Shown here one piece after another: positions 22,291 through 43,714 of a DNA stretch of 64,000 nucleotides. The notes below the pieces were generated by a model. It searched no databases, was not told where the DNA came from, and saw only the letters and a program-made list of their open reading frames with translations. The stretch covers positions 282,282 to 346,281 of the forward strand of contig CAVWEV010000005.1 of NCBI GenBank assembly GCA_963754225.1, read 5' to 3'. The stretch is from an uncultured Thermoleophilia bacterium (GTDB taxonomy: Bacteria > Actinomycetota > Thermoleophilia > Solirubrobacterales > 70-9). Position 1 is the stretch's first letter. The number at the start of each line of letters is the position of its first letter. The position numbers and the translations under genes are program-made.

Positions 22291-22350
22291 TTGATGATGA
22301 CCGAGGACGCGAAGTTCGCTTTGGGGTTCTGAACGGCTTGACCAGAGCGG
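22291..22350 (+). repeat. Repeat copy 3 of the DUF59 3' end plus diverged flank
   Basis: TTGATGATGACCGAGGACGCGAAGTTCGCTTTGGGGTTCTGA, then ACGGCTTGACCAGAGCGG. It differs from copy 1 only by two synonymous changes (GCG>GCT, CTG>TTG). Confidence 0.9.
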
Positions 22351-22375
22351 TTTTCGGGATCGGTCGTCGGCGAGC

Positions 22376-22395
22376 TACAGCCCGATTTGCAGCCC
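22376..22395 (+). repeat. degenerate doublet TACAGCCC-GATT-TGCAGCCC
   Basis: Same 12-nt periodicity and same position relative to the core (about 45 nt downstream) as the doublets at 39419 and 42864. Confidence 0.5.
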
Positions 22396-22571
22396 TAGCC
22401 GCTCGAGCAGCTCGCCGCACGGGGCGACGTCGAGCGCGCCGCCCAGGGGCGCTCTGACCGACGCCGACGGGCGCGACCCGGTGACAAAGCGCCATCGATG
22501 CAGTAGGTCGGCTCCCGGTGGTTCCCACAGGGTCCATCTGCAGGGTGTGTGCCGGGTGCATAATCCTCCCG

Positions 22572-22889
22572 ATGAAGCCACTGGCGGAGGAGGACGCCGC
22601 GCAGCGACGGGTGTTTGTCGATGGCCGATACAGGCTGTTCGGCGAGCTCACCTCCGAGCAGGTGTCCGCCCACGCCGCCGAGCTGGGGCAGGCCGCCGGC
22701 CTGGGCCATGGAAGCCGTGTCGGCCCGGTGTCCGCGGCCTGGAAGCAGCTCGCGATGGAGCTCGAAAGCCGGGGCGCGGCGAGAGTCTCCGGTCTCGACG
22801 CAGCAACAGTGGCTACCTTCGCCGAGCGCCTCTGGATCCTGCCTCCGGGGGGCGAACTGCTCGCGGGTGGGCCGACCGGGGGACGGTAG
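22572..22889 (+). CDS. hypothetical protein
   Basis: MKPLAEEDAAQRRVFVDGRYRLFGELTSEQVSAHAAELGQAAGLGHGS..ATFAERLWILPPGGELL within track ORF 22518..22889. No family recognised. Confidence 0.4.
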   Translation: MKPLAEEDAAQRRVFVDGRYRLFGELTSEQVSAHAAELGQAAGLGHGSRVGPVSAAWKQLAMELESRGAARVSGLDAATVATFAERLWILPPGGELLAGGPTGGR

Positions 22890-22956
22890 CCGCTGAGCAA
22901 AATCGGGCTTGTGCGGGAAGTCAGCGCGGATATAGACTCGGCCCGATGGGGGTCCC

Positions 22957-23368
22957 GTGCCGCATGCGCTGAGCTCAGGTCTGCCGAAGGACTTCCTCCG
23001 GCCATGTCTGCTGCTGCTTTTGCGCGAGCGCGAGGCGCACGGGTACGAGCTGCTGGAGAGCGTCGCGGCCTTCGGATTCGACCACTCGGATCCGGGCGCG
23101 CTCTACAAGACGCTGCGCCGGCTCGAGCACGACGGCCTGGTGCAGTCGGATTGGGAGAGTCCGGCAACGGCCCTCGTAAGCGGGTGTACAGGCTGACCCG
23201 GAAGGGGTTGAGGAGCTGGACCATCGGGCGACCGACCTCGCCGAGGGCGAGCGCCGGATCGACGCGTTTATCGAGCGCTATCTGCGCGCCCGCCGCCTCC
23301 CCTCGGGCGACCGCCGCCGTCGCGCGATGGCGGGGCGGCTCGAGGCCCACCGAGCGGCGGTCAACTGA
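22957..23368 (+). CDS. PadR-family transcriptional regulator; two frame changes
   Basis: LRPCLLLLLREREAHGYELLESVAAFGFDHSDPGALYKTLRRLEHDGLVQSDWES (track 22957..23196), then ..GNGPRKRVYRLTRKG (track 22911..23504 frame), then ..EELDHRATDLAEGERRIDAFIERYL.. by my translation. Confidence 0.7.
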
Positions 23369-23494: not shown

Positions 23495-23773
23495 ATGTGC
23501 TTAGCGATTCCAGGCCAGATACTCGAGATCGTCGATGACGAGAATCGACTCGCGCAGGTGGACGTAGCGGGGGTGCGCCGAAACGTCAACGTCGGCCTCC
23601 TCGACGGCGAGGCCGGTGGGATCGAACCGGGCGACTGGGTGCTGATCCACGTCGGTTTCGCGATCTCGAAGGTGGACGAGGAGGAGGCTCGCGCTACCCG
23701 CGAGCTGCTCGAGGGTATGGGCGCAGACTACGAGCAGGAGCTCGAGGAGCTGAAGGCGAGCGTGATCGAGTGA
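23495..23773 (+). CDS. hypC: hydrogenase maturation chaperone HypC
   Basis: MCLAIPGQILEIV..AQVDVAGVRRNVNVGLL..GDWVLIHVGFAI. Canonical N-terminal Cys and OB-fold pattern. Confidence 0.9.
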   Translation: MCLAIPGQILEIVDDENRLAQVDVAGVRRNVNVGLLDGEAGGIEPGDWVLIHVGFAISKVDEEEARATRELLEGMGADYEQELEELKASVIE

Positions 23774-24003
23774 GCGAGCCGTTCCAGGAGTGCCACGACG
23801 ACCACTGCATCACGTGCGGGGACGTCGCCGAGTCGATGCGCGTCCTCGATGTCGACTCCGCGCGGGCCCTCGCGCTTTGCGAGCTGGACCCAGGAGAGCG
23901 GCAGACCGTCGAGATCGCCCTCGTCGGCCCGGTCGAGGTCGGGGACCGGCTGCTGGTCCACGCCGGGACGGCGATCGCCAGGGCGGAGGAGAGCATCGCG
24001 TGA
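23770..24003 (+). CDS. HypC/HupF-like OB-fold protein with internal CxxC (second copy)
   Basis: ..CHDDHCITCGDVAESMRVLDVD..GERQTVEIALVGPVEVGDRLLVHAGTAIA resembles HypC but has an N-terminal extension in place of Met-Cys. Start and stop both overlap the neighbours by 4 nt. Confidence 0.6.
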   Translation: MSEPFQECHDDHCITCGDVAESMRVLDVDSARALALCELDPGERQTVEIALVGPVEVGDRLLVHAGTAIARAEESIA

Positions 24004-25121
24004 GGTTCGTCGACGAGTTTCGCGACGCCGAGCTCGGCCGGGTGCTCGCCGGCGAGATCGCCGCGGCCGCGGAGCCGGGGCGTCACTACAAGCTGATGGA
24101 GGTATGCGGCGGTCACACACACTCGATCTACAAGTACGGCGTAGACGACCTGCTGCCTGACAACGTCGAGCTGGTGCACGGGCCCGGGTGCCCGGTGTGC
24201 GTGATCCCGATGGGTCGAGTCGACGATGGGATCGCGATCGCCCACGAGGAGAACGTCATCTTCACGTGCTTCGGCGACATGATGCGGGTGCCGGGCTCGG
24301 AGGGGACCCTGCTCGACGCCAAGGCCGAGGGCGCGGACGTGCGGATGGTCTACTCGCCGCTCGACGCGCTTCGAATCGCGAAGTCCAATCCAGAGCGCAA
24401 GGTCGTCTTCTTCGCGATCGGGTTCGAGACCACCGCGCCGTCGACGGCCCTGACCCTCAAGCGGGCGAAGGCCGAGGAAGTCGAGAACTTCCTCTGCATG
24501 TGCAACCACGTGACGATCGTTCCGCCGTTGCGGGCCCTTCTCGACTCGCCCGATCTGCGCCTCGACGGATTCATCGGGCCGGGCCATGTCTCGACGATCG
24601 TCGGCGCGCGTCCGTTCGAGTTCATACCCGCCGACTACGGGAGGCCGCTCGTCACCGCCGGGTTTGAGCCGCTCGACATCCTCCAGGCGATCCTGATGAT
24701 CCTCCGCCAGCTCGCGGACGGCCGCTGCGAAGTCGAGAACCAGTACAAGCGCGTCGTCCCGTACGAGGGAAACCTCCCGGCTCTGGCGGCGATGGCGGAG
24801 GTGTTCGAGCTGCGCCCGCACTTCGAGTGGCGCGGCCTCGGCTTCATCTCGCAGAGCGCGCTGCGGCTCGCGGACTCCTACGCGGACCTCGACGCCGAGC
24901 GCCACTACGAGGTGCCCGGGGTGCGGGTCGCAGATCCAAAGGCGTGTCAGTGCGGAGAGGTGCTGAAGGGCGTGATCAAGCCCTGGGAGTGCAAGGTGTT
25001 CGGAACCGCGTGCACGCCCGAGCACGCGATCGGGACGTGCATGGTCTCCCCGGAGGGCGCGTGCGCCGCCTACTACAACTACGGACGCTACGCTCGCAGG
25101 CGCGAGGCGGTCGCGTCGTGA
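24000..25121 (+). CDS. hypD: hydrogenase maturation protein HypD
   Basis: MEVCGGHTH, GPGCPVCV, FETTAP, GPGHVS and C-terminal CxxxxxxC..CTPEHAIGTCMVSPEGAC. GTG start overlaps the upstream stop. Confidence 0.92.
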   Translation: MRFVDEFRDAELGRVLAGEIAAAAEPGRHYKLMEVCGGHTHSIYKYGVDDLLPDNVELVHGPGCPVCVIPMGRVDDGIAIAHEENVIFTCFGDMMRVPGSEGTLLDAKAEGADVRMVYSPLDALRIAKSNPERKVVFFAIGFETTAPSTALTLKRAKAEEVENFLCMCNHVTIVPPLRALLDSPDLRLDGFIGPGHVSTIVGARPFEFIPADYGRPLVTAGFEPLDILQAILMILRQLADGRCEVENQYKRVVPYEGNLPALAAMAEVFELRPHFEWRGLGFISQSALRLADSYADLDAERHYEVPGVRVADPKACQCGEVLKGVIKPWECKVFGTACTPEHAIGTCMVSPEGACAAYYNYGRYARRREAVAS

Positions 25122-26239
25122 GCGAGCGCGCCCTCAGCGAGCGGGCGAAGGGGCGCGCCTCGGGTGAGGATCGCGAGCAGCGCATCCTGGAGATCATCGA
25201 GACCGCGCGCTCGAAGCGCCCGCGGTTCAAGGACACGCAGATCACGATGTCCCACGGCGCGGGGGGGAAGGCCACCCAGACGATGATCGAGGGGCTGTTC
25301 GTCCCCGCGTTCGAGTCGGAGCCGCTGGCCGAGCTCGGCGACGCCGGCGGGGTCGAGGTCGACGGCGTCAAGCTGGCGATGACCACCGACACGTTCGTCG
25401 TCAAGCCGATCCGGTTCCCGGGCGGCTCGATCGGCGAGCTTGCGGTCAACGGGACGGTGAACGATCTCGCGGCCGCGGGCGCCCGAGCGAGCGCGCTGAG
25501 CGTGGCGATCGTGCTCGAGGAGGGACTCGAAGCGGACGTGCTGCGCGGCGAGGTCGAGGCGATCGCGGAGGCGGCCGGCGGCGCCGGAGTCGAGGTCATC
25601 ACCGGCGACACCAAGGTCGTCGACCGCGGACACGCCGACGAGATGTACATCTGCACGTCTGGGCTCGGCAGGGTCGATGAGCGGGCGTCGCTCTCGACCG
25701 GCTCGCTGGCCGCCGGCGATCGCGTGCTGGTCTCGAAGCCGGTGGGCGAGCACGGCACGGCGATCATGCTCGCGCGGGGCGAGCTCGGCCTCGATGCCGA
25801 TGTCGTCTCCGACACGCGCTCGCTGTGGCCGGTCGCGGACGCCCTGCTCGACTCGGCCGGGGCCGAGCTGCGGTGCATGCGCGACGCGACCCGCGGTGGC
25901 GTCGCGACGGTCCTGAACGAGCTTGCCCGCGCGTCCGGCGTCGGAATGAGTGTTCGCGAAGCGGACGTCCCCGCAGCGCCCGAGGTCGTCGGCGCCGCGG
26001 AGCTGCTCGGGATCGACCCGATGTACGTGGCTAACGAGGGCGTGATGGTCGCCTTCGTCGGGCCGCAGGCCGCCGACGCCGCGGTCGAGGCGCTGCGCTC
26101 CGTGCCCGGATGTGAGGCGGCAGTGGAGATCGGCGAGGTCCGGGACGAGCCTCCGGGGATGGTCCTGGTCGAGACGGCGTTCGGGGGCCAGCGGGTGATG
26201 GACCTGCTCGCCGGAGACCCGCTACCGAGGATCTGCTGA
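25118..26239 (+). CDS. hypE: hydrogenase maturation protein HypE
   Basis: MSHGAGGKAT.., AVNGTVNDLAAAGA, TGDTKVV and the diagnostic C-terminal PRIC*. Confidence 0.92.
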   Translation: MSERALSERAKGRASGEDREQRILEIIETARSKRPRFKDTQITMSHGAGGKATQTMIEGLFVPAFESEPLAELGDAGGVEVDGVKLAMTTDTFVVKPIRFPGGSIGELAVNGTVNDLAAAGARASALSVAIVLEEGLEADVLRGEVEAIAEAAGGAGVEVITGDTKVVDRGHADEMYICTSGLGRVDERASLSTGSLAAGDRVLVSKPVGEHGTAIMLARGELGLDADVVSDTRSLWPVADALLDSAGAELRCMRDATRGGVATVLNELARASGVGMSVREADVPAAPEVVGAAELLGIDPMYVANEGVMVAFVGPQAADAAVEALRSVPGCEAAVEIGEVRDEPPGMVLVETAFGGQRVMDLLAGDPLPRIC

Positions 26240-26291
26240 GCAGGGGAGTGAGCTTGAAACAGATGCAGCCGCGAGCGAGGAGAGGAAGGCG

Positions 26292-27362
26292 ATGGACGTA
26301 AAGGCTGAGTTCGTTCCCGACCAGGCGAAGACCGAGGCGGTCGAGGCGCACGTGATCTGGATGACGACCGGGCTGTCGTGCGACGGCGACTCGGTGGCGA
26401 TGACCTCCGCCGTCAACCCCAGCCTCGAGGACATCGTCACGCAGGCGATTCCGGGGATGCCGAAGGTGATCGTCCACAACCCCGTGCTCGCGTACGAGAA
26501 CGGCCCCGAGTTCATCGAGTACTGGTGGCGCGCGGAGCGTGGCGAGCTCGATCCGTTCGTGCTCGTGGTCGAGGGTTCGGTGCCGAACGAGGACCTCTCC
26601 GGCGAGGGGTACTGGGCCGGGATCGGCGACGACCCGGAGTCGGGGCAGCCGATCACGACGAACGAGTGGATCGACCGCCTGGCGCCGAAGGCGGCGGCCG
26701 TCGTCGCGGTCGGTACATGCGCCACCTACGGCGGCATACCCGCGATGAAGAACAACCCGACCGGCGCGATGGGCGTGGCCGACTACCTCGGCTGGGACTG
26801 GAAGTCGAGCGCGGGGCTGCCCGTGGTCAACATCCCGGGCTGCCCGGCCCAGCCGGACAACACCACCGAGACGCTGCTCTACCTCGCGCTGCATCTCGCG
26901 GGGCGTGCCCCGGTCCCGGATCTCGACGAGGCGCTGCGGCCGACGTGGCTGTTCGGGCGAACGGTTCGCGAGGGCTGCAACCGCGCCGGCTTCGTCGAGC
27001 AGGGCAGGTTCGCCACCGAGTACGGTGACGATCCCCGCTGCCTGATCAAGCTCGGCTGCAAGGGCCCCGTCGTGAAGTGCAACGTCCCGGTTCGCGGGTG
27101 GGTCGACGGCTACGGGGGATGCCCCAATGTCGGCGGGATCTGCATGGCGTGCACGATGCCCGGGTTCCCCGACAAGTACATGCCGTTCATGGAGCCGGAC
27201 TCGTGGGGTAGCGCCGCCGCGAACTTCGAGCGGTTCACGTTCGGGCCGGTGATCCGCTACTTCCGCCAGCGGCACATCAAGAACAAGTACGACGTCGAAC
27301 CGGAGTGGCGCAAGCGCAGCTCGCGGCTCGAGACCGGCTATCAGGCACGGAACTACGGCTGA
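26292..27362 (+). CDS. hhyS: [NiFe]-hydrogenase small subunit, group 1h type (no Tat signal)
   Basis: GLSCDGDS, GTCATYGGIPA, PGCPAQPD and CKGPVVKCNVP..GGCPNVGGICMACTMPGFPD (Fe-S cluster ligands). The N-terminus lacks an RRxF twin-arginine motif. RBS GAGGAGAGGAAGG. Confidence 0.9.
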   Translation: MDVKAEFVPDQAKTEAVEAHVIWMTTGLSCDGDSVAMTSAVNPSLEDIVTQAIPGMPKVIVHNPVLAYENGPEFIEYWWRAERGELDPFVLVVEGSVPNEDLSGEGYWAGIGDDPESGQPITTNEWIDRLAPKAAAVVAVGTCATYGGIPAMKNNPTGAMGVADYLGWDWKSSAGLPVVNIPGCPAQPDNTTETLLYLALHLAGRAPVPDLDEALRPTWLFGRTVREGCNRAGFVEQGRFATEYGDDPRCLIKLGCKGPVVKCNVPVRGWVDGYGGCPNVGGICMACTMPGFPDKYMPFMEPDSWGSAAANFERFTFGPVIRYFRQRHIKNKYDVEPEWRKRSSRLETGYQARNYG

Positions 27363-27424
27363 GGTGACATCGGCGACAAGAGCGAAGAGCCCCGAGTTTC
27401 ACTGACCCAAGAGGAGAGAAGCAG

Positions 27425-29209
27425 ATGGCAACCGTAGAGACACCGCGCGGCGACCAGAAGGTGATGGTCAAGGAGATGTCCTGGGACCCGATCACCCGGA
27501 TCGTCGGCAGCCTCGGGATCCACACCGAGATCGACTTCTCGAACCAGCAGGTTCTGAAGTGCTACTCGACCTCGATGGTCTTCCGCGGGTTCGACATCTT
27601 CATGAAGGGGATCGACCCCCGCGACGCGCACTTCATCACCAGCCGCATCTGCGGGATCTGCGGTGACAACCACTGCACCTGCTCGTGCCTGAACCAGAAC
27701 ATGGCCTACGGCGTCAAGCCGCCGCCGCTGGGCGATCTCGCGTTCAACCTCGCGGAGTCGGCGGACTACATGTTCGACCACGCGATCTTCAACGACTGCA
27801 TGGCGAACGTCGACTTCTGCGAGCAGATGGTCAAGGAGACGAACCCCTCGCTGCTGGCGAAGGCCGAGCAGGAGCTCGCGCCGCACTCCGACATCCACGG
27901 CTACCGGACGATCGCCGACATCATGCGGTCGCTGAACCCGTTCACGGGGGACTTCTATCTCGAGACCCTCCAGGTGGCGCGGTACACGCGCGAGATGTAC
28001 TGCCTGTTCGGCGGTCGCCACACGCACCCCTCGACGATCATGCCCGGGGGCTGCAGCGCGCACATCACGCACCAGACGCTGACCGACTACTACGTGCGGC
28101 TGATGCGTTACTTCGAGTACGTGAAGCGCACCGTGCCGATGCACGACGACCTCTACGACTTCTTCCTCCGGGAGTTGCCGGGGTACGACATGGTCGGCTA
28201 CCGCGACACCAATCTCGTCAACTGGGGCGCGTTCGACGACCCCGACTACGTCGACTACGACTACCGCAACATGACCGAGTGGGGTCGGAAGCGGTACGTC
28301 ACGCCGGGAGTGGTGATCAACGGGGAGTTGATCTCCACCGACCTGGTCGAGATCAACCTGATGATTCGGATCCTGCTCGGGTCTTCGTACTTCGACGACT
28401 GGACGGAGACCGAGCAGCCTTTCGTCACCCAGGACCCGCTCGGGAACCCGGTCGACCCGCGGCACCCCTGGAACAAGGTGACGATCCCGCGCCCTCAGAA
28501 GCGGGACTGGGCGGACAAGTACAGCTGGGTGGTCTCCCCGCGGATCTACGACGAGCGCACCGACACGCACGTTTGCTGCGACACGGGCGGCGGCCCGTTC
28601 GCGCGGCAGTGGTGCACCGCAAAGGCGGGCCTGGTCGACTTCGGGTACGCGAAGGCGACCGGGGAGAGCATCCAGATGGTGCTGCCGAAGACGCCCAACT
28701 CCGCGGAGACGGAGCTCGAGTGGAAGATTCCGGAGAAGTCGAACGCGATCGAGCGCGATCGCGCCCGGACCTACCACCAGGCGTACTCGGCGCTGATCGG
28801 GCTGCACTGCCTTGAGCGCGCGTTCACCGAGGTGCGCGCAGGGCGGACCAAGAGCTGGTCTGACTTCACGGTCCCGAACGAGACGATCAGCGTCGGGTTC
28901 CACGAGGCCGCGCGCGGCGTGCTCTCCCATCACATGGTGATCCAGGGAGGCAAGATCGCGAACTACCAGCCTTACCCGCCGACGCCGTGGAACGCCAGCG
29001 TGCGCGACGTCTACGGAACTCCGGGCCCCTACGAGGACGCGGTGCAGAACACGCCGATCTTCGAGGAGAACGGCCCGGAGAACTTCAAGGGCGTCGACAT
29101 CATGCGGGCAGTCCGCAGCTTCGACCCGTGCCTGCCGTGCGGCGTGCACATGTACGACGGCAAGGGCGGCGTGCGGAAGGTGATGCATACGCCGACGGGG
29201 ATGTGCTGA
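27425..29209 (+). CDS. hhyL: [NiFe]-hydrogenase large subunit, group 1h/5 type
   Basis: N-terminal TSRICGICGDNHCTCS and C-terminal SFDPCLPCGVHMY (the two CxxC Ni-Fe ligand pairs). Intact 594 aa. Confidence 0.92.
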   Translation: MATVETPRGDQKVMVKEMSWDPITRIVGSLGIHTEIDFSNQQVLKCYSTSMVFRGFDIFMKGIDPRDAHFITSRICGICGDNHCTCSCLNQNMAYGVKPPPLGDLAFNLAESADYMFDHAIFNDCMANVDFCEQMVKETNPSLLAKAEQELAPHSDIHGYRTIADIMRSLNPFTGDFYLETLQVARYTREMYCLFGGRHTHPSTIMPGGCSAHITHQTLTDYYVRLMRYFEYVKRTVPMHDDLYDFFLRELPGYDMVGYRDTNLVNWGAFDDPDYVDYDYRNMTEWGRKRYVTPGVVINGELISTDLVEINLMIRILLGSSYFDDWTETEQPFVTQDPLGNPVDPRHPWNKVTIPRPQKRDWADKYSWVVSPRIYDERTDTHVCCDTGGGPFARQWCTAKAGLVDFGYAKATGESIQMVLPKTPNSAETELEWKIPEKSNAIERDRARTYHQAYSALIGLHCLERAFTEVRAGRTKSWSDFTVPNETISVGFHEAARGVLSHHMVIQGGKIANYQPYPPTPWNASVRDVYGTPGPYEDAVQNTPIFEENGPENFKGVDIMRAVRSFDPCLPCGVHMYDGKGGVRKVMHTPTGMC

Positions 29210-30111
29210 GCGAGCCGACAGCCGAAGGCGCGGATCCGGATGCCCTCGTCGCGCGAGTCCAGGAGCTGACCGGGGCCGGGCTCGACGAAATCGAGGACCC
29301 GGCGACCCGCGCCCGCGTCGAGGAGCTGGTCGGCGCGGTGATCGAGCTCTACGGGGCGGGACTGGAGCGCGTCTTCGCTGCCCTCGCGGACACTGGCGAG
29401 GCAGGGCTCCAGATCGGACGCAGGCTGGCCGACGACGGGGTGGTCGCCAGCCTGATGCTGATCCACGGCCTCTACCCCGTCGACCTCGAGACGCGTGTGC
29501 GGGAGGCGCTCGAGGGCGTCCGCCCGTACATGGAGTCGCATGCGGGCGATGTCGAGCTGCTCGAGATCACCGACGGGGTCGCCCGGATACGGCTCGAGGG
29601 AAGCTGCCGCGGGTGCGCCGCATCCTCGGCGACGCTCGAGCTGGCGATCAAGCAGGCGCTCGACGAGCACGCCCCGGACCTCGTCGGCCTCGAGGTCGAT
29701 GGGGCCGCCCCGGCCACCCAGGCGGACTCCGCCGCGAACGGTATGGAGCTGCCGGTGATCCAGGTCGATTCCGGCGGGGGCGCCGATGGGGCTCCCGGAC
29801 CCTCGTGGTTCGACCTCGACGGCGCCGTGACCCCGGCCGAGGGGGCGCTCGCGCGGATCGAGGTCGGGACGGTCGTGCTGCTGGTGGCGAACGTCGGCGG
29901 GACCCTGCTCGCGTACGTCGACCGCTGCGCCGGCTGCGGCGCCAGCCTGGCCGGGGGCGAGCTCGACGGACGCGCGATGCGATGCGCGTCGTGCTCCCGG
30001 CGGTTCGACCTCCGCGCCGCGGGCCGTGCGCTCGACGGTGACGACCTCCAGCTCGACCCGGTTCCGCTGCTGGAGGAGGACGAGGGCGTGCGGGTCGCCC
30101 TGCGCGGATGA
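29203..30111 (+). CDS. NifU-C-terminal-like domain fused to a Cys-rich Rieske-like domain (hydrogenase-associated)
   Basis: ..VREALEGVRPYMESHAGDVELLEITDGVARIRLEGSCRGCAASSATLELAIKQAL (NifU-like CxxC), then VANVGGTLLAYVDRCAGCGASL..MRCASCSRRFDL. GTG start overlaps the hhyL stop. Confidence 0.65.
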   Translation: MLSEPTAEGADPDALVARVQELTGAGLDEIEDPATRARVEELVGAVIELYGAGLERVFAALADTGEAGLQIGRRLADDGVVASLMLIHGLYPVDLETRVREALEGVRPYMESHAGDVELLEITDGVARIRLEGSCRGCAASSATLELAIKQALDEHAPDLVGLEVDGAAPATQADSAANGMELPVIQVDSGGGADGAPGPSWFDLDGAVTPAEGALARIEVGTVVLLVANVGGTLLAYVDRCAGCGASLAGGELDGRAMRCASCSRRFDLRAAGRALDGDDLQLDPVPLLEEDEGVRVALRG

Positions 30112-30797
30112 GCACGGGCGGCGACGCGCTCGCGCGCAAGGCGGCGGCCCGCCGGCGGGCGGAGCTGGTCTCCAGCCTGAGGCGGATCGGCGCCGGGAAG
30201 GCAGGCGCGGGCACGGCGGGATCCAGCGCGTCGAACGGGGCGTCGGCGCCGGGAGAGCGCTGCGAGCTGTGCTCGACGACGATCCCCGACGAGCACCGCC
30301 ACATGATCCACCTCGACGAGCGGCGGATCCTGTGCGTGTGCGACCCGTGCTGGTCGCTTCGCTCCGACGACCCCGAGCTGCGCCCGGCCGGCGTGCGCAC
30401 GGTGTGGCTCGACGACCTCGAGCTGCCGGACGATCTGTGGGCGCGATTCGAGATCCCGATCGGTCTCGCGTTCTTCCTCCGCAACGGCGCCGACGATCGC
30501 GTGGTCGCGCTGTACCCGAGCCCGGCCGGGGCGACGGAGTCGGACATCGACCCCGACGCCTGGAACGAGGCGGTAGACGCGAATGCGCAGCTGAGGAGGC
30601 TGGAGCCCGACGCCGAGGCGCTGATCGTGAACCGCCTCACCGAGCCCCACTGCAACGTGATCGCCCCGATCGACGAGTGCTATCGCCTCGTCGGCATGAT
30701 CAAGCTGAGCTGGGAGGGAATCTCGGGCGGTGAGGGGCCTGAGCGTGCCGTGGAGGCGTTCTTCGCCCACCTGCGCGAGCGCGAGGTCGCCGGATGA
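30108..30797 (+). CDS. conserved hydrogenase-associated hypothetical protein (Cys-rich; I believe DUF5947-like)
   Basis: ..ERCELCSTTIPDEHRHMIHLDERRILCVCDPCW..FEIPIGLAFFLRN.. 4-nt overlaps with both neighbours. Family name is from memory and unverified. Confidence 0.55.
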   Translation: MSTGGDALARKAAARRRAELVSSLRRIGAGKAGAGTAGSSASNGASAPGERCELCSTTIPDEHRHMIHLDERRILCVCDPCWSLRSDDPELRPAGVRTVWLDDLELPDDLWARFEIPIGLAFFLRNGADDRVVALYPSPAGATESDIDPDAWNEAVDANAQLRRLEPDAEALIVNRLTEPHCNVIAPIDECYRLVGMIKLSWEGISGGEGPERAVEAFFAHLREREVAG

Positions 30798-31483: not shown

Positions 31484-31486
31484 GAG

Positions 31487-32650
31487 ATGGACCGGTCGCT
31501 CGAGAGGCTGCTCGACTCGCTTCTCTACGAGGGCTACGCGCTCTATCCCTACACCCCGGGCGCGACCAAGAACGCGACCCCGACCCCGTTCGGGATCGTG
31601 TACCCGCCCGCGTACGCCGAGCGCAACGACGCGACCTACGACCTGCTGCGGATGGAGTGCATCGTCGAGGCAGCGGGCGACGCTGTGCTGCGCGGGGAGG
31701 TTCGGTTCCTTCAGGCCGAAGGTGAGCGGCACAAGGGAATCGAGCGCCGGGTCGAGATACCCGCGACCGGCGTTGCGGACCTCGAGGCGGAAGGCACCGG
31801 ACAGGGGTTCGGCTTCGATGCGGCCGTCCGGCTCGAGGGCCGGGTCCGGATGCGCGCCACCATGCTCGGCGGCGGGTTGACGCGGATTGCCGTCTGCGTC
31901 CACAACACGACGCCGGTCGAGGGCGACGGGGTGACCGACCGCACGAGCGCGCTGAGCGCCAGCTTGATCTCCACGCATACAGTCGCCGAGATCGAGGGCG
32001 GGCGCTTCATCTCCCCGCTCGAACGCGAGGGAGTCGCCGGAGAAGCAGTCGCCTCGTGCCGCAATTTCAACACGTGGCCGGTGCTGGCGAGCCCCCGCGA
32101 CGACGCCGTTCTGGGAGCGGCGATCCACCTTCCGGATCACCCGTCGATGGCTCCGGAGAGCCTGGGGAACCTCTTCGACTCGACCGAGATCGAGGAGGCG
32201 CTGTTGCTGCACGTGCACGCGCTCTCGGACGACGAGCGTGGAGCGATCGCCGAGCAGGACCCCGCAGTGAAGGAGATGGTCGAGCGGGCGCTGAGCGCCG
32301 GGCGCGAGGACATCTTCTCGCTGCACGGCAGGCTGGAGGAGGTCGTCGCCGAGCCCGGGCATCCGGTCCCCGGCGAGTCCGAGATCGAGGTCGACGGCGT
32401 CACGTTCCGCAAGGGCGGCAAGGTGATCCTGCGGCCGGGCCGGAGTCGCGATGTCTACGACTCGATGCTGGACGGGCGCACCGCGACGATCGAGCGCCTC
32501 TACTACGACAGCGACGGAGATGCTCATATCGCGGTCACCGTCGACGGCGACGCCGCCCAGGGCCTGTTCCGCGAGACCGGCCGCTATCTGTTCTTCCGCG
32601 GTCACGAGGTCGAAGCGGTTCCGGAAAGGAGCAAGGCGACCCATGGGTGA
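31487..32650 (+). CDS. conserved hydrogenase-associated hypothetical protein
   Basis: MDRSLERLLDSLLYEGYALYPYTPGATKNATPTPFGIVYPPAY.. Intact 387 aa. No family recognised. Confidence 0.5.
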   Translation: MDRSLERLLDSLLYEGYALYPYTPGATKNATPTPFGIVYPPAYAERNDATYDLLRMECIVEAAGDAVLRGEVRFLQAEGERHKGIERRVEIPATGVADLEAEGTGQGFGFDAAVRLEGRVRMRATMLGGGLTRIAVCVHNTTPVEGDGVTDRTSALSASLISTHTVAEIEGGRFISPLEREGVAGEAVASCRNFNTWPVLASPRDDAVLGAAIHLPDHPSMAPESLGNLFDSTEIEEALLLHVHALSDDERGAIAEQDPAVKEMVERALSAGREDIFSLHGRLEEVVAEPGHPVPGESEIEVDGVTFRKGGKVILRPGRSRDVYDSMLDGRTATIERLYYDSDGDAHIAVTVDGDAAQGLFRETGRYLFFRGHEVEAVPERSKATHG

Positions 32651-33167
32651 TGCACAGCGGGAGAAGCAGATCCTGATCGCGGGGATCGGCAACGCGTGGA
32701 TGCGCGACGACGGCTTCGGCGGTCGGGTGGCCGAGAGCCTCTCCGCGGGCGATCTGCCGGCCGGGGTGAGCGTGTTCGACTTCGGCACCGGCGGGCTCGA
32801 CCTCGCGTACGAGGTCATGCGCGGCTACGACGCCCTGGTGCTGGTGGACGTCAGCCGCCAGGGTGGCGAGCCCGGGACGCTGTACGTGATCGAGCCCGAT
32901 CCGGAGGACATCGAGCCGATCGAGGACGGCCACGCCGTCAACCCGCACGGTATGGACCCGAGGACCGTGCTTCGGTTCGTGAAAACGGTGGGAGGGTGGC
33001 CTGGCAAGGTCGTCGTCGTCGCGTGCGAGCCCGCCGGAGGCGACGACGAGATGGGGCTCGAGCTCTCACCCGAGGTCGGCGCGGCCGTCGAGCGGGCGAC
33101 GAGGCTCGTCCTCGACACCGTGGATGAGCTGAGATCGGACGCCGCGTACGCGGAGGCGGAGTCCTAA
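32643..33167 (+). CDS. hydrogenase maturation endopeptidase (HupD/HyaD/HybD family)
   Basis: ILIAGIGNAWMRDDGFGGRV..DFGTGGLDLAYEV..DALVLVDV..NPHGMDP. Typical Asp/His metal-site pattern. Confidence 0.85.
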   Translation: MGDAQREKQILIAGIGNAWMRDDGFGGRVAESLSAGDLPAGVSVFDFGTGGLDLAYEVMRGYDALVLVDVSRQGGEPGTLYVIEPDPEDIEPIEDGHAVNPHGMDPRTVLRFVKTVGGWPGKVVVVACEPAGGDDEMGLELSPEVGAAVERATRLVLDTVDELRSDAAYAEAES

Positions 33168-33169
33168 TC

Positions 33170-33577
33170 GTGCACGAGCTTTCGATCTCGAGCGCGATCG
33201 TGAACACCGCCGAGCGCCACGCGGCCGGCCGAAAGGTGACCGCCGTCGACGTCAGGGTTGGCAGCCTGCGACAGGTCGTCCCAGGGTCGCTGGTCTTCTA
33301 CTTCGAGATCGTGGCCCGGGACACGGTCTGCGCCGACGCCCGGCTGAAGCTCGAGTCCGTGGCCGCGCTGCTGCGGTGCCCCGATTGCGGACGCGAGTGG
33401 GACCCGGCGCCGCCGCCGCTCGCGACCCACGAGCCGCTCGCGGGGTCGGGCCTGCCGCCGGTGCCGGCGTTTCGTTGCCTGGACTGCGTCTCCCCGGGCG
33501 AGGTCATCGCGGGAGACGAGCTCGAGGTCGAGTCAATCGAGGTCCAAGGCTCAGCGGCGGCGGCCGCGGCCGGCTGA
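33170..33577 (+). CDS. hypA: hydrogenase nickel incorporation protein HypA
   Basis: MHELSISSAIVNT.. N-terminal MHE motif and the zinc site CPDCG..CLDC. Confidence 0.88.
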   Translation: MHELSISSAIVNTAERHAAGRKVTAVDVRVGSLRQVVPGSLVFYFEIVARDTVCADARLKLESVAALLRCPDCGREWDPAPPPLATHEPLAGSGLPPVPAFRCLDCVSPGEVIAGDELEVESIEVQGSAAAAAAG

Positions 33578-33591
33578 GAAAGGAGGGGACG

Positions 33592-34272
33592 ATGCATCGC
33601 ACCAAGATCACGGTCGCCGAGGACGCCCTTGACGCGAACGAGACGATCGCCCGAACGAACCGCAATGACTTCGACCGCGCCGAGGTCGCGGTCGTGAACC
33701 TGATGAGCTCGCCCGGGGCGGGCAAGACGACGTTGCTCGAGCGCAGCCTCGGCGACCTCGGCGGCGTTCGGGCGGGGGTGCTCGAAGGAGACGTCCAGGG
33801 GAGCATCGACTCCGACCGCATCGCCTCCCTGCATGTGCCGGTCACGCAGCTCAACACCGGCGCAGGGTTCGGCGGCGAGTGCCATCTCGACGCGAACATG
33901 GTCCGCTCCGCGCTTCCCTCGCTCCCCCTCGCCGACCTCGACCTGCTGGTGATCGAGAACGTTGGCAACCTCGTGTGCCCGGCCGAGTTCAAGGTCGGGG
34001 AGGACGCGCGGGTGATGATCGCGTCGGTCACCGAGGGGGAGGACAAGCCGCTCAAGTACCCGCTCATGTTCCGCGCCTGCGAGCTGATCGTCATCAACAA
34101 GATCGACCTCTTGCCCCACATCGAGTTCGACCTCGAACGCCTCCGGGAGAACCTCGACATCGTCCATCCGGGGGTCGAGCGGATCGAGCTCAGCGCTCGC
34201 ACCGGCGAGGGGGTTGAGGCCTGGCGGAGCTGGCTCTCCGCGGTCCCGGAGCGCCGGCGGGCGATCGCCTGA
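33592..34272 (+). CDS. hypB: hydrogenase nickel incorporation GTPase HypB
   Basis: MSSPGAGKTTLL (P-loop), ENVGNLVCPA, VINKIDLL. RBS AAGGAGGGG before ATG at 33592. Confidence 0.9.
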   Translation: MHRTKITVAEDALDANETIARTNRNDFDRAEVAVVNLMSSPGAGKTTLLERSLGDLGGVRAGVLEGDVQGSIDSDRIASLHVPVTQLNTGAGFGGECHLDANMVRSALPSLPLADLDLLVIENVGNLVCPAEFKVGEDARVMIASVTEGEDKPLKYPLMFRACELIVINKIDLLPHIEFDLERLRENLDIVHPGVERIELSARTGEGVEAWRSWLSAVPERRRAIA

Positions 34273-34280
34273 GGCCATCC

Positions 34281-35486
34281 ATGCCCGGGACCGCGGCAGA
34301 GACGCTCCACTCGCGGCTCGACGCGTTCCGAGCGGTTCGCACCGAGGCGAATCGAGACTTCTTCGCGGCCGAGGCCGAGCGGCTCGCTCGCTGCTGCCAC
34401 TCCATGGCCGAGCGCTTCGCTCGCGGGGGGCGACTCGTCGCGCTCGGGCGCTCGCCGGTGGCGCGCTCGGATGCGCGTCATGTCGCGGTCGAGTTCGTCC
34501 ATCCGGTCATCGTGGGCAAGCGCGCGCTTCCGGCGCTCGCGCTCGCGGGTGAGGGTGGACCGCTGGAGAGACAGGTCCGCGCGGTGGTCGAATCCGGGGA
34601 CATCGCGATCGGCTACGGGATCGAGGACCCGGACGAGCTCGAGACGCGGGACGCGCTGGCGGTGGCGAGGGAGCTCGGGTGCCTGACGATCGCTTTCGGC
34701 CCCGGCCCCGCGGAGTGGGTGTTCGAGCCCGAGGCTCCGGACTCGTTCGTCAGGCAGGAGCTCGTCGAGACCCTCTACCACGTGCTGTGGGAGCTCGTCC
34801 ATGTCTTCTTCGAGCACCGCGGCCTGCTCGAGGGACGCGAGATCGGCCCGGTCCACGACACCGGCGCATCGAGCTTTCTCTATCCCTTCCTCTCGGAGTC
34901 TGAGGCGGACCTCGAGGGCGTGATCGAGGACGTTCGGGCCTCGATCCTGATGAAGGCGCAGGAGGTGGGTTCGCTGCGGGAGCAGACCCTGGCGGAGGGC
35001 GGCGAGGCGCTGCTTGCCGCCGCCGACGAGCTGCGCCGCGCCCGGGATGCCGGGGCCCGTGTGCTGGCGATGGGCAACGGCGGCTCGGCGACCGACGCGA
35101 TGGACTTCGTCGCCGACCTTCGGGCCGCGGGGCTGCGTTCGATCGACCTCACCGAGGACGCGTCGATCCTGACCGCGATCGCGAACGACGTCGGCGTCGA
35201 GGAGATCTTCCAGCGACAGGTGATCGCGTACGGGCGCGCGGGGGACATCGCCGTGGCGCTGTCGACGAGCGGAAACTCGGCGAACCTGATCGAGGCGCTG
35301 ACCGAGGCTCGCCGCCAGCGGCTCACGACGCTCGCGTTCGTCGGCTACGACGGGGGGCGGATCGCCTCCGAGCGGCTGACGGACCACGTGGTCGTGACGC
35401 GGTCTCAGCACATCCCCCGCATCCAGGAGGCACAGGCGAGCGGCTACCACGCCCTGGTCGAGCTGATCCGCGCACCCGAGGAGTGA
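34281..35486 (+). CDS. tandem SIS-domain protein (GmhA/phosphoheptose-isomerase-like), hydrogenase-associated
   Basis: Second half: RVLAMGNGGSATDAMDFVADL..VALSTSGNSANLIEAL..FVGYDGG. First half is a more diverged SIS-like repeat. Confidence 0.7.
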   Translation: MPGTAAETLHSRLDAFRAVRTEANRDFFAAEAERLARCCHSMAERFARGGRLVALGRSPVARSDARHVAVEFVHPVIVGKRALPALALAGEGGPLERQVRAVVESGDIAIGYGIEDPDELETRDALAVARELGCLTIAFGPGPAEWVFEPEAPDSFVRQELVETLYHVLWELVHVFFEHRGLLEGREIGPVHDTGASSFLYPFLSESEADLEGVIEDVRASILMKAQEVGSLREQTLAEGGEALLAAADELRRARDAGARVLAMGNGGSATDAMDFVADLRAAGLRSIDLTEDASILTAIANDVGVEEIFQRQVIAYGRAGDIAVALSTSGNSANLIEALTEARRQRLTTLAFVGYDGGRIASERLTDHVVVTRSQHIPRIQEAQASGYHALVELIRAPEE

Positions 35487-35489
35487 CCC

Positions 35490-37834
35490 GTGGCGTTGTC
35501 GGCGAGAACAACCGAGAGGCGTCGGGTGAGGGCCCGGGTTGCCGGGGTCGTTCAGGGAGTTGGATTTCGACCCTACGTCTTCCGTCTCGCCGAGGAGCTG
35601 GGGCTCGGTGGGTGGGTGCTGAACGACGAGCGCGGAGTGGAGGTCGAAGTCGAGGGTGAGCCGGCCTCGGTCGACGAGTTCCTGGCAAGGCTCCCCGCCG
35701 AAGCGCCACCGCTCGCGAGCGTCGAGTCGGTCCGCGTCGACCCCGCGCGGGCGAGCGGGGAGTGCACATTCCGGATCGTCGAGTCGGAGCGCGGCGCCGA
35801 GCCCGAGGCGCTGGTCTCGGCCGACTTCGCCACCTGCCCCGACTGCCTGACCGAGCTGTTCGATCGCGGCCAACAGGCGTCACCGATATCCGTTCATCAA
35901 CTGCACGAACTGCGGCCCGCGGTTCACGATCGTGCGCGGCGTCCCGTACGACCGACCGTTGACGACGATGGCCGGGTTCGAGATGTGCGACAGCTGCCGG
36001 GCCGAGTACGAGGACCCCCGCGACCGCCGCTTCCACGCCCAGCCGAATGCGTGCCCTGAGTGCGGTCCCCGCGTTCGCCTCCTCGACCCGGCCGGAGCCG
36101 AGCTGGCCCGAGGGCTGTATCGCGATGCGGTCGCCGCCGCCGCCGCGATGCTCGCCGCCGGGAAGGTGGTCGCCGTGAAAGGGCTCGGGGGTTACCACCT
36201 CGCGTGCCGGGCCGACGACGAGGCCGCGGTTCGCGAGCTCCGCTCGCGCAAGCACCGCGAGGACAAGCCGTTCGCGCTCATGTGCGGGAACCTCGCCGAA
36301 GCGCGGGAGCTGGTCGAGCTGACCGCCCACGAGGAGGAGCTCCTCGCGGGGCCGGAGCGACCGATCGTGATCGCGCGACGTCGTCCCCGGGCGGAGGTCG
36401 CCTCCGCGGTCGCGCCCTACTCGCCCGACCTCGGGGTGATGCTTGCCTACTCACCGCTCCATCACCTGCTTCTCGCCGACGCCGCGAGGACGCTCGTGAT
36501 GACCTCCGGCAACGTCTCGGACGAGCCGATCGCGTACCGCGATGACGACGCGCTCGAACGGCTGGGGGAGATCGCCGACGCCTTCCTCGTCAGCGACCGC
36601 CCGATCCACATCCGAACCGACGACTCGGTGCTCCGCTCACTGGACCCCTCGGTCCGCTCCGAGCCGGTGTTGATGCGGCGCTCCCGGGGCTTCGTGCCGG
36701 CCAGCATCGAGCTGCCGCTCGAGGCGCCGCCGCTGCTCGCGTCAGGCGCCGAGCTGAAGAGCACCTTCTGCGTCGCCAAGGGACGTCGCGCCTGGGTCAG
36801 CCACCACATCGGCGACCTGAAGAACTGGGAGACGCTGCACTCGTTCCGCGAGGGAGTGGAGCACTTCGAGCGCGTGTTCGCCGTCGAGCCGCGCCTAGTC
36901 GCTCACGACCTGCACCCGGACTACCTGTCGACGCGCGAGGCGCTCGAGCGAGTTGGCGACCGGCTCGTCGGCGTCCAGCACCACCACGCCCACCTCGCAG
37001 CATGCCTCGCGGAGCACGGTGAGCTTGGGCCGGCGATCGGCGCGATCTATGACGGCAGCGGCTACGGGACCGACGGAACCGTGTGGGGCGGCGAGCTGCT
37101 CGCGGGCGACCTTGCGAGGTTCGATCGCGTGGGGCTGCTGTTCCCGGCCCGCTTGCCCGGCGGCGACGCTGCGGTTGGCGAGCCGTGGAGGATGGCGTGC
37201 GCGTGGCTAGCGCTCTCGCACGACGAGGAGCTGCCCGCGATCCCGTCACCTCTCCGCACGGCGGTCGAACCCCGCCGCTGGGAGGCGGTCTGCGAGCTCG
37301 TTCGCACCGGGGTCGGCTCGCCGCTCACGACCAGCGTGGGGCGGCTGTTCGATGCGGCGGCGGCCTTGTGCGGCCTCCGCGCCAAGGTCAACTACGAGGG
37401 CCAGGCGGCGGTCGAGCTCGAAGGCGCGACGCGACCCGCGCGAGCGGGGCGCCTACCCGATGCCGCTGCTCCCCGCCGACCGCGTCGGTCAGGGCGTGGG
37501 CCGAGGGGCGATGACTGTTCTCGACGCTCGCGAGACTGTTCGCGCCCTCGTCGCTGACCTCGAGCGGGGCGCCTCGCCGGCCACCGTCGGAGGTCGCCTG
37601 CACAACGGTCTCGCGAATGCCACCGCGGAGGCATGCGCGCGCGAGGCCGAGCGGCGCGGCACCTCGACCGTAGTGCTCTCGGGCGGGGTGTTCCAGAACC
37701 GGTTGTTGGTCGAGCGCACGCTCGCGCGGCTGCAGGAGCACGGCCTGAGGGTCCTGCTGCCTACGCGCCTGCCTCCCAACGACGGCGGCATCTCCTACGG
37801 CCAGGCGGCGGTAGCGGCCGCGACCCACCCGTAA
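35490..37834 (+). CDS. hypF: carbamoyltransferase HypF; two frame changes
   Basis: Acylphosphatase domain VAGVVQGVGFRPYV. Zinc fingers CPDC..(frame change near 35870)..NCTNCGPRFTI..CDSC..CPECGP. YrdC-like KGLGGYHLAC. C-terminus SGGVFQNRLL..NDGGISYGQA after a frame change near 37430 (track ORFs 35490..36059, 35932..37557, 37352..37834). Confidence 0.85.
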
Positions 37835-37841
37835 CTGTTTG

Positions 37842-38594
37842 ATGGATTTCGAGTTTCTCTACAAGGCCGTCGAGGACGTCGACATGTGGTTCGAGGGTCT
37901 GTTCGCCGGGGCGCCGTTCGCCGTTGTCCTCGGGATCGCGCTCATCCTCGGCGCCCGGCACGCATCCGACCCCGACCACCTCGTCGCCGTTACCTCGCTC
38001 GTGGCCGCGGACGGCGGGGACGTGCGGGGCGCCGCCCGGCTCGGCGCCTGGTGGGGGGCCGGCCACGCCGGGGCGCTGCTCGTCCTCGGCGTCCCGTTGA
38101 TCCTGTTCAAGTCGGAGATGCCCGCGTGGCTCGAGCGTGGCGCCGAGACAGCGGTCGGAGTCGTGATTCTCGTGCTCGCGCTGCGGATCGTCGTCAAGTG
38201 GGCACGCGGCGACTTCCGGGCCGGGAGACACGAGCACCGCAATGCCTCCCAGTCGGTCGGCCACCGCCACCTCCGCGAGGGCGCGGACACCGCGCACCCT
38301 CACCGCCACCTTCGCTCGCGACGTCAGGCGCTCGGGATCGGCGTCCTCCACGGGCTCGCTGGGACCGGCCCGGTGGCGTTGCTGCTCATCGCCGCGCTTC
38401 CCACCCAGCTCGAGGCGGCGGCGGCGCTCGCCGTGTTCGCGCCGATGTCGGTGATCTCGATGGCGCTGTGCACGACAGCGTTCGCGTGGCTGCTTACCCG
38501 CCCGGTAGTCGACCCGATCTATCGCACCGTGCTGATCCCGGCGTTCGGGATCTTCGGGCTCATGTTCGGGCTCTGGTACACGGGGATCGCGTAG
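37842..38594 (+). CDS. NicO/NiCoT-like nickel(cobalt) permease with His-rich loop
   Basis: GARHASDPDHL (HAxDxDH-type signature), loop HEHRNASQSVGHRHLREGADTAHPHRH and second-half motif GVLHGLAGTGP. About 6 TM segments. Confidence 0.7.
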   Translation: MDFEFLYKAVEDVDMWFEGLFAGAPFAVVLGIALILGARHASDPDHLVAVTSLVAADGGDVRGAARLGAWWGAGHAGALLVLGVPLILFKSEMPAWLERGAETAVGVVILVLALRIVVKWARGDFRAGRHEHRNASQSVGHRHLREGADTAHPHRHLRSRRQALGIGVLHGLAGTGPVALLLIAALPTQLEAAAALAVFAPMSVISMALCTTAFAWLLTRPVVDPIYRTVLIPAFGIFGLMFGLWYTGIA

Positions 38595-38641
38595 AGGCTT
38601 ACGAACACGCGCACTCGCACCCCGTCATCTATCTGAGGTGA

Positions 38642-39139
38642 TTACCGTGCTGCGGCCGGCTCGCCGACGAGCGCGTCAGTGCCTACCCGGATCCGTTCCT
38701 GCTCCAGCTGGGCGTGTTGCGTTCGGGCCCGCTCCATCAACCGGTCGAGATCGATCGCGGCGAGCGGCTCGTAGCGGTCCTGCACCCGCAGCAGCACCTG
38801 CCACATGCACTCCTTGCCGGCGACGCCCAGGGTCAGGCTCTCGAGCGCCATGAAGAGCCCGATGTCGGGCTCGCCCGAGCTGAGACCGCTGAACTTCACG
38901 CGGCTCGCCTTCTCGGTCATCCAGGCACCGGCCTGCTTGACGGGGTTCTTCGTCGTACGCATACGCTCCATCAGCTCGATGAGGGTCTCCCGATCCTCCT
39001 CGATCTCGGCCGTGATCGTCTCCATCAGCGCTCGCAGCCGGCCCTCGGAGCGGTCCCGAATCTGCTTCGCGAGGTCGAATCCGAGCGTCGAACCAGCGAG
39101 GTGATCGTTGAGGTAGGTGTCCATCGGCTTGTCCGCCAT
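38642..39139 (-). CDS. hypothetical protein
   Basis: Intact 165-aa ORF MADKPMDTYLNDHLAGSTLGFDLAKQIRDRSEG.. RBS GGGAGG. No family recognised. Confidence 0.45.
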   Translation of the reverse strand: MADKPMDTYLNDHLAGSTLGFDLAKQIRDRSEGRLRALMETITAEIEEDRETLIELMERMRTTKNPVKQAGAWMTEKASRVKFSGLSSGEPDIGLFMALESLTLGVAGKECMWQVLLRVQDRYEPLAAIDLDRLMERARTQHAQLEQERIRVGTDALVGEPAAAR

Positions 39140-39326
39140 CGAACCTCCCGATACTTGGGTGCGTGTGTCGAACCGGCTACCCGGATCGCGCGGTCCTACT
39201 CAGCGTGCGGAGCTCAGGTCGTCCGCTGCTCCTTCGGCTCGCGCGACGGTACGCGGCGGACGCGAAACCGCACTAGAAAGCCGTTTCCCGGACGGGGCGG
39301 TACGGGGTGGACGCCGCGCCCCTTAG

Positions 39327-39365
39327 ATGATGTCCGAGGACGCCAAGTTCGCGCTGGGCTTCTAG
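39327..39365 (+). repeat. Repeat copy 4 of the DUF59 3' end
   Basis: ATGATGTCCGAGGACGCCAAGTTCGCGCTGGGCTTCTAG, preceded in frame by TAG. Upstream 39245-39320 carries the GGTACGGGG sub-repeats and a CACTAGAAAGCCG box shared with copy 3. Confidence 0.9.
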
Positions 39366-43703: not shown

Positions 43704-43714
43704 TCGAAGGCGCA

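Follow-up and report, generated by a model that had tools for sequence, protein, structure and literature searches.

A complete group 1h [NiFe]-hydrogenase block in a candidate tandem array of integrase-less islands at the 3′ end of a DUF59 gene

Soil bacteria in dormancy are kept alive by high-affinity hydrogenases, the enzymes that make up the principal biological sink for atmospheric H2. Phylogenetic work has placed those of group 1h among the energy genes most subject to horizontal transfer and reports, in general terms, that they frequently lie near mobile elements (PMC13554262). Concrete vehicles for their transfer are rarely described, and one candidate is provided by a 64,000-nucleotide stretch of an uncultured Thermoleophilia bacterium of the order Solirubrobacterales (GenBank assembly GCA_963754225.1, contig CAVWEV010000005.1, positions 282,282 to 346,281; the whole of this stretch is referred to hereafter as the window), in which a full group 1h [NiFe]-hydrogenase set is encoded between 23.5 and 38.6 kb (open reading frame (ORF) listing and Pfam scans) and lies between two copies of a 42-nt direct repeat. 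An earlier note on this DNA had taken the locus to sit exactly between the repeats, as a discrete and possibly recently acquired module. How does an entire hydrogenase locus come to lie between two repeats, and what are the repeats? The reading that we favor, at a probability of about 70%, is that the complete group 1h block belongs, as one of several units, to a tandem array of islands that lack integrases and are interspersed with copies of an attachment (att) site.

The repeat and the DUF59 gene end

In its first copy the repeat is the authentic 3′ end of a DUF59/SufT-like gene (its last 13 codons and stop codon, 42 nt), whose product terminates in ..PEMMTEDAKFALGF* and scores below the cut-off of the SUF_assoc/SufT models. 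Exactly four copies are found in the window, all of them on the + strand, where none would be expected by chance, and a search with nhmmer returned no further degenerate core beyond 39.4 kb. The cores differ from one another mainly at third codon positions and at the stop codon: 16 secondary copies drawn from several genomes carry 40 synonymous to 17 non-synonymous changes, in comparison with 176:79 in 80 real gene ends. Since this codon pattern resembles that of real ends, the secondary copies look like displaced or element-borne gene ends, as opposed to random matches. A scan of the window for tRNA and tmRNA genes came back empty, which excludes a tRNA as the target; the whole window gave no match in Rfam, and the att core gave none among IMG/VR viral contigs.

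Similarity between copies extends outward from the cores into flanking arms. Copies 3 and 4 have in common a 95-nt upstream arm (73% identical between the two, and 75–81% against the arm of L004; loci of relatives are cited here by L numbers). The arm upstream of core 3 (P) is 73–81% identical to those of copy 4, L004 and L092, and the arm downstream of it (P′) is 70% identical to those of L068, L004 copy 2 and L023. Arms beside the cores form families, whose short direct repeats are like those that serve as arm-type sites for integrases: one family, with GGGGTCA and GTCCCCA repeats, is found at 20 or more loci, that at window copy 3 has TGCARCCC pairs, and that following window copy 4 has GATTGCAAC pairs. 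The arm pair of the window hydrogenase island is also found in L004, around an island of unrelated cargo.

The behavior of this site elsewhere was followed through 80 loci, these being matches to the DUF59 protein in species-representative genomes, nearly all of them Solirubrobacterales/Thermoleophilia metagenome-assembled genomes (MAGs). A profile of the 42-nt core recovered 20 extra copies in 15 of the 80, and every full extra core is positioned 3′ of an intact DUF59 gene and on the same strand. In at least nine relatives a tyrosine integrase lies beside the DUF59 gene end. That of L032 (PF00589) directly follows the gene, and that of L055 (PF00589, 1.2 kb after the gene) is succeeded by a TrwC relaxase, a combination that identifies the L055 element as an integrative and conjugative element (ICE) or an integrative and mobilizable element (IME). 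Homologues of the L055 integrase occupy the same place in L020, L037, L041, L069, L081 and L082. A degraded integrase of another type is found in L068, contiguous with its arm, which runs straight into the integrase gene; the ~110 nt that follow window copy 3 match this arm at 70% identity, and only ~16 codons after copy 3 resemble the tail of the L068 integrase. Taken together, these comparisons indicate that the repeats are very probably att sites, copies left behind by integrative elements that target the DUF59 gene end, and the earlier note was right to treat the repeats as meaningful. The 3′ end of a DUF59 gene appears not to have been described in the literature as an integration hotspot.

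The site is hypervariable. From the DUF59 stop codon to the WS/DGAT (wax-ester synthase) gene, the distance is 24 bp–9.3 kb in 39 relatives, as against 40.9 kb here, and none of the cargo of window 7.3–47.3 kb, hhyL included, was found beside the DUF59 gene in the 80 relatives. Past WS/DGAT the backbone is collinear (M28 peptidase, lytB and beyond). In the window, the order along the array runs from the DUF59 gene through island A, core 2, island B, core 3, the hydrogenase island (17 kb), core 4 and a ~8-kb variable stretch to the backbone (Table 1).

Several further details of the site were observed in relatives. The integrase ORF of L032 (10125–11495) continues into the 3′ end of the DUF59 gene on its antisense strand, where the first stop is met 170 nt in; that of L068 has its stop directly against the DUF59 stop codon. 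L008 has, at this att site, an island with a gene resembling an HK97-type prohead protease (11547–12248), so phage-related elements may also use the DUF59 site. The position of the FxsA gene (6185–6865, − strand) varies. It precedes the DUF59 gene in the window and some relatives and, in many others, follows it, past the inserted islands, so that the DUF59 gene and its inserts appear to lie on one side of fxsA or the other.

Enzyme class and gene content of the block

The closest match to HhyL among all PDB sequences is 5AA5 chain C (908 bits), the actinobacterial-type hydrogenase (group 5/1h) of Ralstonia eutropha, encoded on megaplasmid pHG1. The next class scores 154 bits and the Huc enzyme of M. 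smegmatis (group 2a) 110 bits; HhyS gives 499 bits to 5AA5 chain A versus 145 bits for the next class. Both motifs initially reported for hhyL, TSRICGICGDNH (L1) and SFDPCLPCGVH (L2), can be read in its translation, and these are reportedly the metal-binding signatures given for group 1h large subunits by Constant and colleagues in 2011. A C-terminal tail of 19 residues follows SFDPCLPCGVH, for proteolytic maturation. HhyS begins MDVKAEFVPDQAKTEAVEAHVIW... and has no RRxF motif when read by eye, in line with its proposed lack of a twin-arginine translocation (Tat) signal. NCBIfam holds no 1h-specific model, all of its matches falling below cut-off, and an exact-protein look-up returned no record for the window HhyL. 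The 5AA5 scores, the two motifs, the missing Tat signal and the DUF5947/DUF6084/NifU–Rieske neighbors agree with one another, and the assignment of HhyL and HhyS to group 1h, as first proposed, is secure at the level of sequence. The enzyme is predicted to oxidize atmospheric H2 with high affinity and without sensitivity to O2. The locus is a standard group 1h one, and enzymes of this kind were already known from the clade.

ORF listing and Pfam scans bear out the gene list drawn up previously and add two small genes to it, encoding proteins of 105 and 165 aa at either end of the block; neither matches a family in Pfam or NCBIfam. The 105-aa ORF has only four homologues in the protein database, and the 165-aa ORF adjoins NicO in L088–L092. 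Synteny of the four accessory genes (from the NifU+Rieske protein to the 387-aa protein) is kept in L002, L003 and L084–L088, and NicO is syntenic in L002, L086 and L088. The protein listed earlier as tandem-SIS does belong with SIS proteins, with Pfam detecting the C-terminal SIS domain only. At 0.65–0.73, the G+C content of the module overlaps that of the backbone and of the other islands and is uninformative on foreign origin.

Two genes of the set are interrupted. Relative to the short-read contig L088, in which HypF is intact (780 aa), hypF has 1-nt insertions at 35866 and 37430; in the same comparison these are the only 1-nt insertions, the other coding indels in the window being in-frame. 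The PadR gene has two 1-nt deletions, at ~23159 and ~23197, both in short homopolymers (alignment to L001), and is intact in L096 (147 aa) and L099. Related MAGs with "contig_N" names display a similar fragmentation of genes. Because short-read relatives keep hypF (L088) and PadR (L096) intact, the breaks look like assembly errors, and on these alignments the four single-base indels are probably errors of long-read consensus. Were the hypF breaks real, the hydrogenase could not be matured without a second hypF elsewhere; the description of the set as self-sufficient holds only if hypF is intact in the real genome. The stretch from 23.5 to 35.5 kb is indeed free of frame breaks, as had been remarked, and this provides no evidence for a module or for recency: at ~0.2 breaks/kb across the window, we estimate the probability of a clean 12-kb stretch at ~0.1, and it is therefore unremarkable and without biological message. 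Islands A and B seem to have more frame breaks per unit length than the backbone (1–7 kb and 48–64 kb), which could reflect either real decay or poorer consensus over strain-variable DNA.

Table 1. Coordinates of the array, the hydrogenase block and their neighbors in the window
Feature	Position	Strand	Basis or remark
DUF59/SufT-like Fe–S assembly gene, 98 aa	7038-7334	+	PF01883, 1.2e-20
42-nt core copy 1	7293-7334	+	DUF59 gene end; presumed attB/attL core
Island A, 11.6 kb	7335-18919		DUF6929, patatin-like, 11-aa-repeat protein, polyketide-cyclase-like protein, Na/Ca exchanger
Core copy 2	18920-18961	+	MMSEDANFALGF*; upstream arm weakly like those of copies 3 and 4
Island B, 3.3 kb	18962-22167		KaiC-like, MerR-receiver regulator, sigma factor
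KaiC-like ATPase gene, three frames	19027-20423	-	Pfam
MerR-receiver hybrid regulator	20423-21097	-	Pfam
Group-3-type sigma factor	21230-22099	+	Same factor precedes module in L096, 95.6% nt
att junction 3	22168-22543	+	P arm 22168-22290; core 22291-22332; P′ arm 22333-~22543
105-aa ORF	22572-22889	+	No family; first gene of block common to close relatives
PadR-family regulator	22957-~23400	+	PF03551; read with two single-base deletions
hypC	23495-23773	+	PF01455
hypC-like, second HypC-family gene	23770-24003	+	PF01455
hypC, hypC-like, hypD, hypE maturation genes	23495-26239	+	PF01455 twice, PF01924, AIRS/AIRS_C
hhyS small subunit	26292-27362	+	PF01058, PF14720
hhyL large subunit	27425-29209	+	L1 TSRICGICGDNH, L2 SFDPCLPCGVH
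NifU+Rieske protein, DUF5947, DUF6084, 387-aa protein without family	29200-32650	+	Pfam
HycI-type maturation protease, hypA, hypB, SIS-domain protein	32643-35486	+	Pfam/NCBIfam
hypF	35490-37834	+	Pfam; three frames from two 1-nt insertions
NicO-like nickel permease	37839-38594	+	PF03824 weak, 26.7 bits vs cut-off 27.7
165-aa ORF	38642-39139	-	No family; last gene of shared block
att junction 4	39240-39460	+	P arm ~39240-39323; core 39324-39365; then different P′-type arm, GATTGCAAC direct repeats
Island D / variable zone	39461-47300		390-aa protein, GT2 glycosyltransferase, DUF6328, PhoD-like (two frames), glyoxalase
WS/DGAT (wax-ester synthase) gene	48198-49823	-	First conserved backbone gene after islands

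Boundaries and origin of the block

The hydrogenase locus does lie between cores 3 and 4, and the word "exactly" attached to this by the earlier note is an overstatement: the ends of the block fall at ~22,543–22,565 and 39,209–39,240, inside the element-derived arms and not at the cores. What is shared with close relatives is a block of 16.6 kb (~22.55–39.22 kb), 90–96% identical at the nucleotide level and found in more than one setting. The setting of the window is reproduced at the left end by L096, an independent 3.3-kb Joint Genome Institute (JGI) contig of 93–96% identity, on which the order is sigma factor, partial att core, 105-aa ORF, intact PadR and hypC. At the right end it is reproduced by L092, from a 32-kb JGI contig: here the block stops at window position 39212, and beyond it come arm-like sequence, a partial core, one glycosyltransferase gene, a complete arm whose core is degenerate, and L004-like backbone. 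As these independent assemblies reproduce the linkage at the two ends, the arrangement of block and att sequences is real. In a second setting, a DsbA-like gene lies left of the 105-aa ORF in L001 (96.6% identical over 10.6 kb), L098 and L099, with homology beginning at 22,543–22,565, and a DUF7144 gene lies past the 165-aa ORF in L088–L090, with homology ending at 39,209–39,240. In more distant relatives only hypC–hypF is kept (23,495–37,822), NicO being present in some and missing from others, and at least four additional settings are represented. In L003, L085 and L087 the cluster has lytB on one side and a 264-aa gene on the other, not many kb from the WS/DGAT neighborhood; the same two genes are 2 bp apart in the window (52,737/52,740), with no scar. 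A tblastx comparison of the flanks of relatives against all loci was uninformative, the high G+C content giving rise to pervasive spurious matches.

The block is therefore a discrete module, as had been suggested, with the same content and sharp ends in at least two contexts among relatives 90–96% identical. The accompanying suggestion of recent acquisition is not borne out, in that the module is ~82% identical at the nucleotide level to L003/L087, within the backbone spread of 70–86%, and cores 3 and 4 match at just 34/42 positions. On L096 we also observe that the partial att core (1390–1460) is fused in frame to the sigma-factor ORF, which consequently ends ...EDAKFALGL*, a borrowed DUF59 tail and stop.

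We propose that the 42-nt DUF59 3′ end serves as an attachment site for integrative, conjugative or mobilizable elements that employ tyrosine integrases. Each integration would restore the gene end from the element's own copy while pushing the previous gene end downstream, such that successive integrations would generate direct repeats of the gene end, bracketed by element-derived arms. Copies 3 and 4 would then be two internal junctions of the array, and the hydrogenase block would be the cargo of one such element, whose integrase and backbone were later lost to leave what may now be a relic or a cis-mobilizable island. For delivery of the block by site-specific integration we see roughly even odds; the L004 island, with the same arm pair and other cargo, lends support to it. 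In keeping with a site-specific island, cores 3 and 4 provide flanking direct repeats of the target gene 3′ end, and presence/absence polymorphism is seen among relatives; an integrase inside the island and next to att is missing from the window. The arrangement also resembles that of a cis-mobilizable element (CIME): att sites are retained (a core with the P′ arm on the left, a core with the P arm on the right), genes for integration and transfer are lost, and only hydrogenase-related genes lie between. By analogy, the hydrogenase island is a putative CIME that might be excised by the integrase of a related ICE, and the block may be mobile at the present day. A wider proposal, in which the DUF59 3′ end is a major integration hotspot in Thermoleophilia and the block a cis-mobilizable unit that resident ICE integrases excise and pass on, is one that we put forward tentatively, as possible but short of probable.

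A number of observations weigh against an att-bounded array with the block as one of its units. No integrase, excisionase or transfer gene was found anywhere in the window (regular-expression and tblastn searches for tyrosine and serine recombinases), so the islands would have to be relics or cis-mobilizable elements. Nothing remains of an element backbone between the block and the arms, which adjoin directly, and the two cores that flank the block have diverged to the extent given above. Relatives of the second setting, with DsbA-like and DUF7144 neighbors, have no att core beside the block, from which it follows that the block changes neighbors without visible att sites, or that the sites have been lost; seven more distant hydrogenase loci likewise have no att core. 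Lastly, hypF is frameshifted as read. Two candidates for a recombinase were considered in the window and dropped: a tblastn match by copy 1 (7171–7512), taken as a possible integrase remnant, is the antisense of the DUF59 gene only, and the WS/DGAT gene was discarded as a resident recombinase.

Several of the same observations would be accommodated by the principal rival reading, in which the att relics are real and the block came in between junctions that already existed by another route, such as recombination, whether homologous or illegitimate, or a local move from the site beside lytB that relatives use. Block ends away from the cores, neighbors of DsbA-like or DUF7144 type with no att core in close relatives, the lytB-adjacent clusters of L003, L085 and L087 within a few kb of the WS/DGAT neighborhood, and an island devoid of element backbone are all compatible with such a route. 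We consider it rather unlikely, given that both ends of the block abut one pair of arm families, which brackets different cargo in L004, that the att linkage recurs in L096 and L092, and that the lytB junction of the window is a tight 2-bp boundary without a scar.

The remaining alternatives concern the repeats themselves. Each secondary copy is readable as a 12-codon ORF from ATGATG and its variation is mostly synonymous, as might be expected if the repeat had a function of its own, as a small ORF (MMTEDAKFALGF) or as a structured regulatory RNA positioned ahead of gene modules, and were no scar of recombination. This is made highly improbable by the fixed position of the copies, always 3′ of an intact DUF59 gene and co-oriented with it, by the integrases that adjoin the same core in relatives, and by the membership of the arms in unrelated families. 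No Rfam family matches the repeat, and RNAalifold applied to seven arm-plus-core copies returned −10.6 kcal/mol with a covariation term of 0.09, leading us to reject a conserved RNA structure in the arms. That the whole arrangement is an artefact, a long-read metagenome contig misjoined at repeats of ~130–170 nt, is barely credible: repeats are classic misjoin points and the window has many single-base frame errors typical of long-read assemblies, but L096 spans the sigma factor, att core, 105-aa ORF, PadR and hypC at 93–96% identity, L092 spans the right end of the module, through the att arms and on to the backbone, and the repeats are far shorter than long reads. We accordingly retain the tandem array of att-bounded islands as the preferred account of the window, with the hydrogenase block as one of its units.

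Neighboring islands and comparison with known systems

The other islands of the array carry unrelated genes. Island A includes a DUF6929 gene split over two frames and a patatin-like phospholipase gene that changes frame several times (7422–10200), and a low-complexity ORF (12634–14061, − strand) in which some twenty 33-nt (11-aa) tandem repeats are arranged in two blocks (13017–14408); the protein with the 11-aa repeats has no informative family match. A dispersed repeat of ~54 nt (core TTCTCCYGCGACATCGCSTACTC; 11820–11874 in the window) is found at 89–100% identity in related islands, in L092 (4 copies), L068 (2–3), L013, L007, L008 and L028, and looks like a small element of this clade, resembling repetitive extragenic palindromic (REP) sequences or miniature inverted-repeat transposable elements (MITEs). 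The sigma factor of island B is also found upstream of the block in L096 and thus may regulate it. No terminal att copy was found for island D. Where the backbone resumes, between a small ORF and the WS/DGAT stop, lies an inverted repeat (47979–48165) with 91-nt arms, 71% complementary, and a 5-nt loop.

If the proposed origin is correct, the array would supply a physical vehicle for the unusually frequent horizontal transfer reported for group 1h genes in soil Actinomycetota: the candidate vehicle is a sharply bounded block of structural, maturation and nickel-uptake genes, at a site where relatives have integrases and a relaxase. It would also place a protein-gene hotspot in a poorly studied, largely uncultured order, and help to read strain-level variation in MAGs.

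Among known group 1h loci (R. eutropha 5AA5; hhy of Mycobacterium smegmatis, Streptomyces and Rhodococcus), the window resembles its counterparts in both subunits, in the L1/L2 motifs, in the lack of a Tat signal, and in having NifU–Rieske, DUF5947, DUF6084 and hypABCDEF with the protease in one cluster. It differs from them in host (a Thermoleophilia/Solirubrobacterales MAG), in the PadR gene and the 105-aa and 165-aa ORFs at the cluster ends, and in the placement of the cluster within an att-bounded island array. The array invites comparison with integron cassettes, where a promoter-proximal platform gene is likewise followed by unrelated cassettes with a recurring site. Unlike those of an integron, the window site is a 42-nt gene-end copy with long arms in place of an attC hairpin, and its units are multi-gene islands of 3–17 kb; an integron identity was rejected, as the array is flanked by FxsA, DUF59 and WS/DGAT genes with no integron integrase, and there is no conserved hairpin at the site.

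Closer parallels are found in site-specific islands. The ssrA-specific islands of Dehalococcoides, which carry vcrABC, likewise have a respiratory/energy operon as cargo, the end of one single-copy gene as target, and direct repeats, and they are a major source of strain-level variation (PMC3146451), as would be the case for the window on our reading. Half of the Dehalococcoides islands keep a syntenic integration module and their cargo is near-identical between strains, whereas the integration module is gone from the window. Tandem accretion of ICEs, IMEs and CIMEs at a gene 3′ end has been described in cases such as ICESt1/ICESt3 at fda of Streptococcus thermophilus and the pathogenicity islands of Streptomyces (PMC5704250); shared with the window are repeats that correspond to the target 3′ end, integrase-less islands that keep att, tandem islands, and integrase-bearing relatives at the same site in other genomes. 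The window differs in its target gene (DUF59/SufT-like), in its host clade and in having no functional ICE. Both the enzyme and the mechanism of island accretion are of kinds already known, and it is the genomic setting, a complete group 1h block in such an array, that adds to them.

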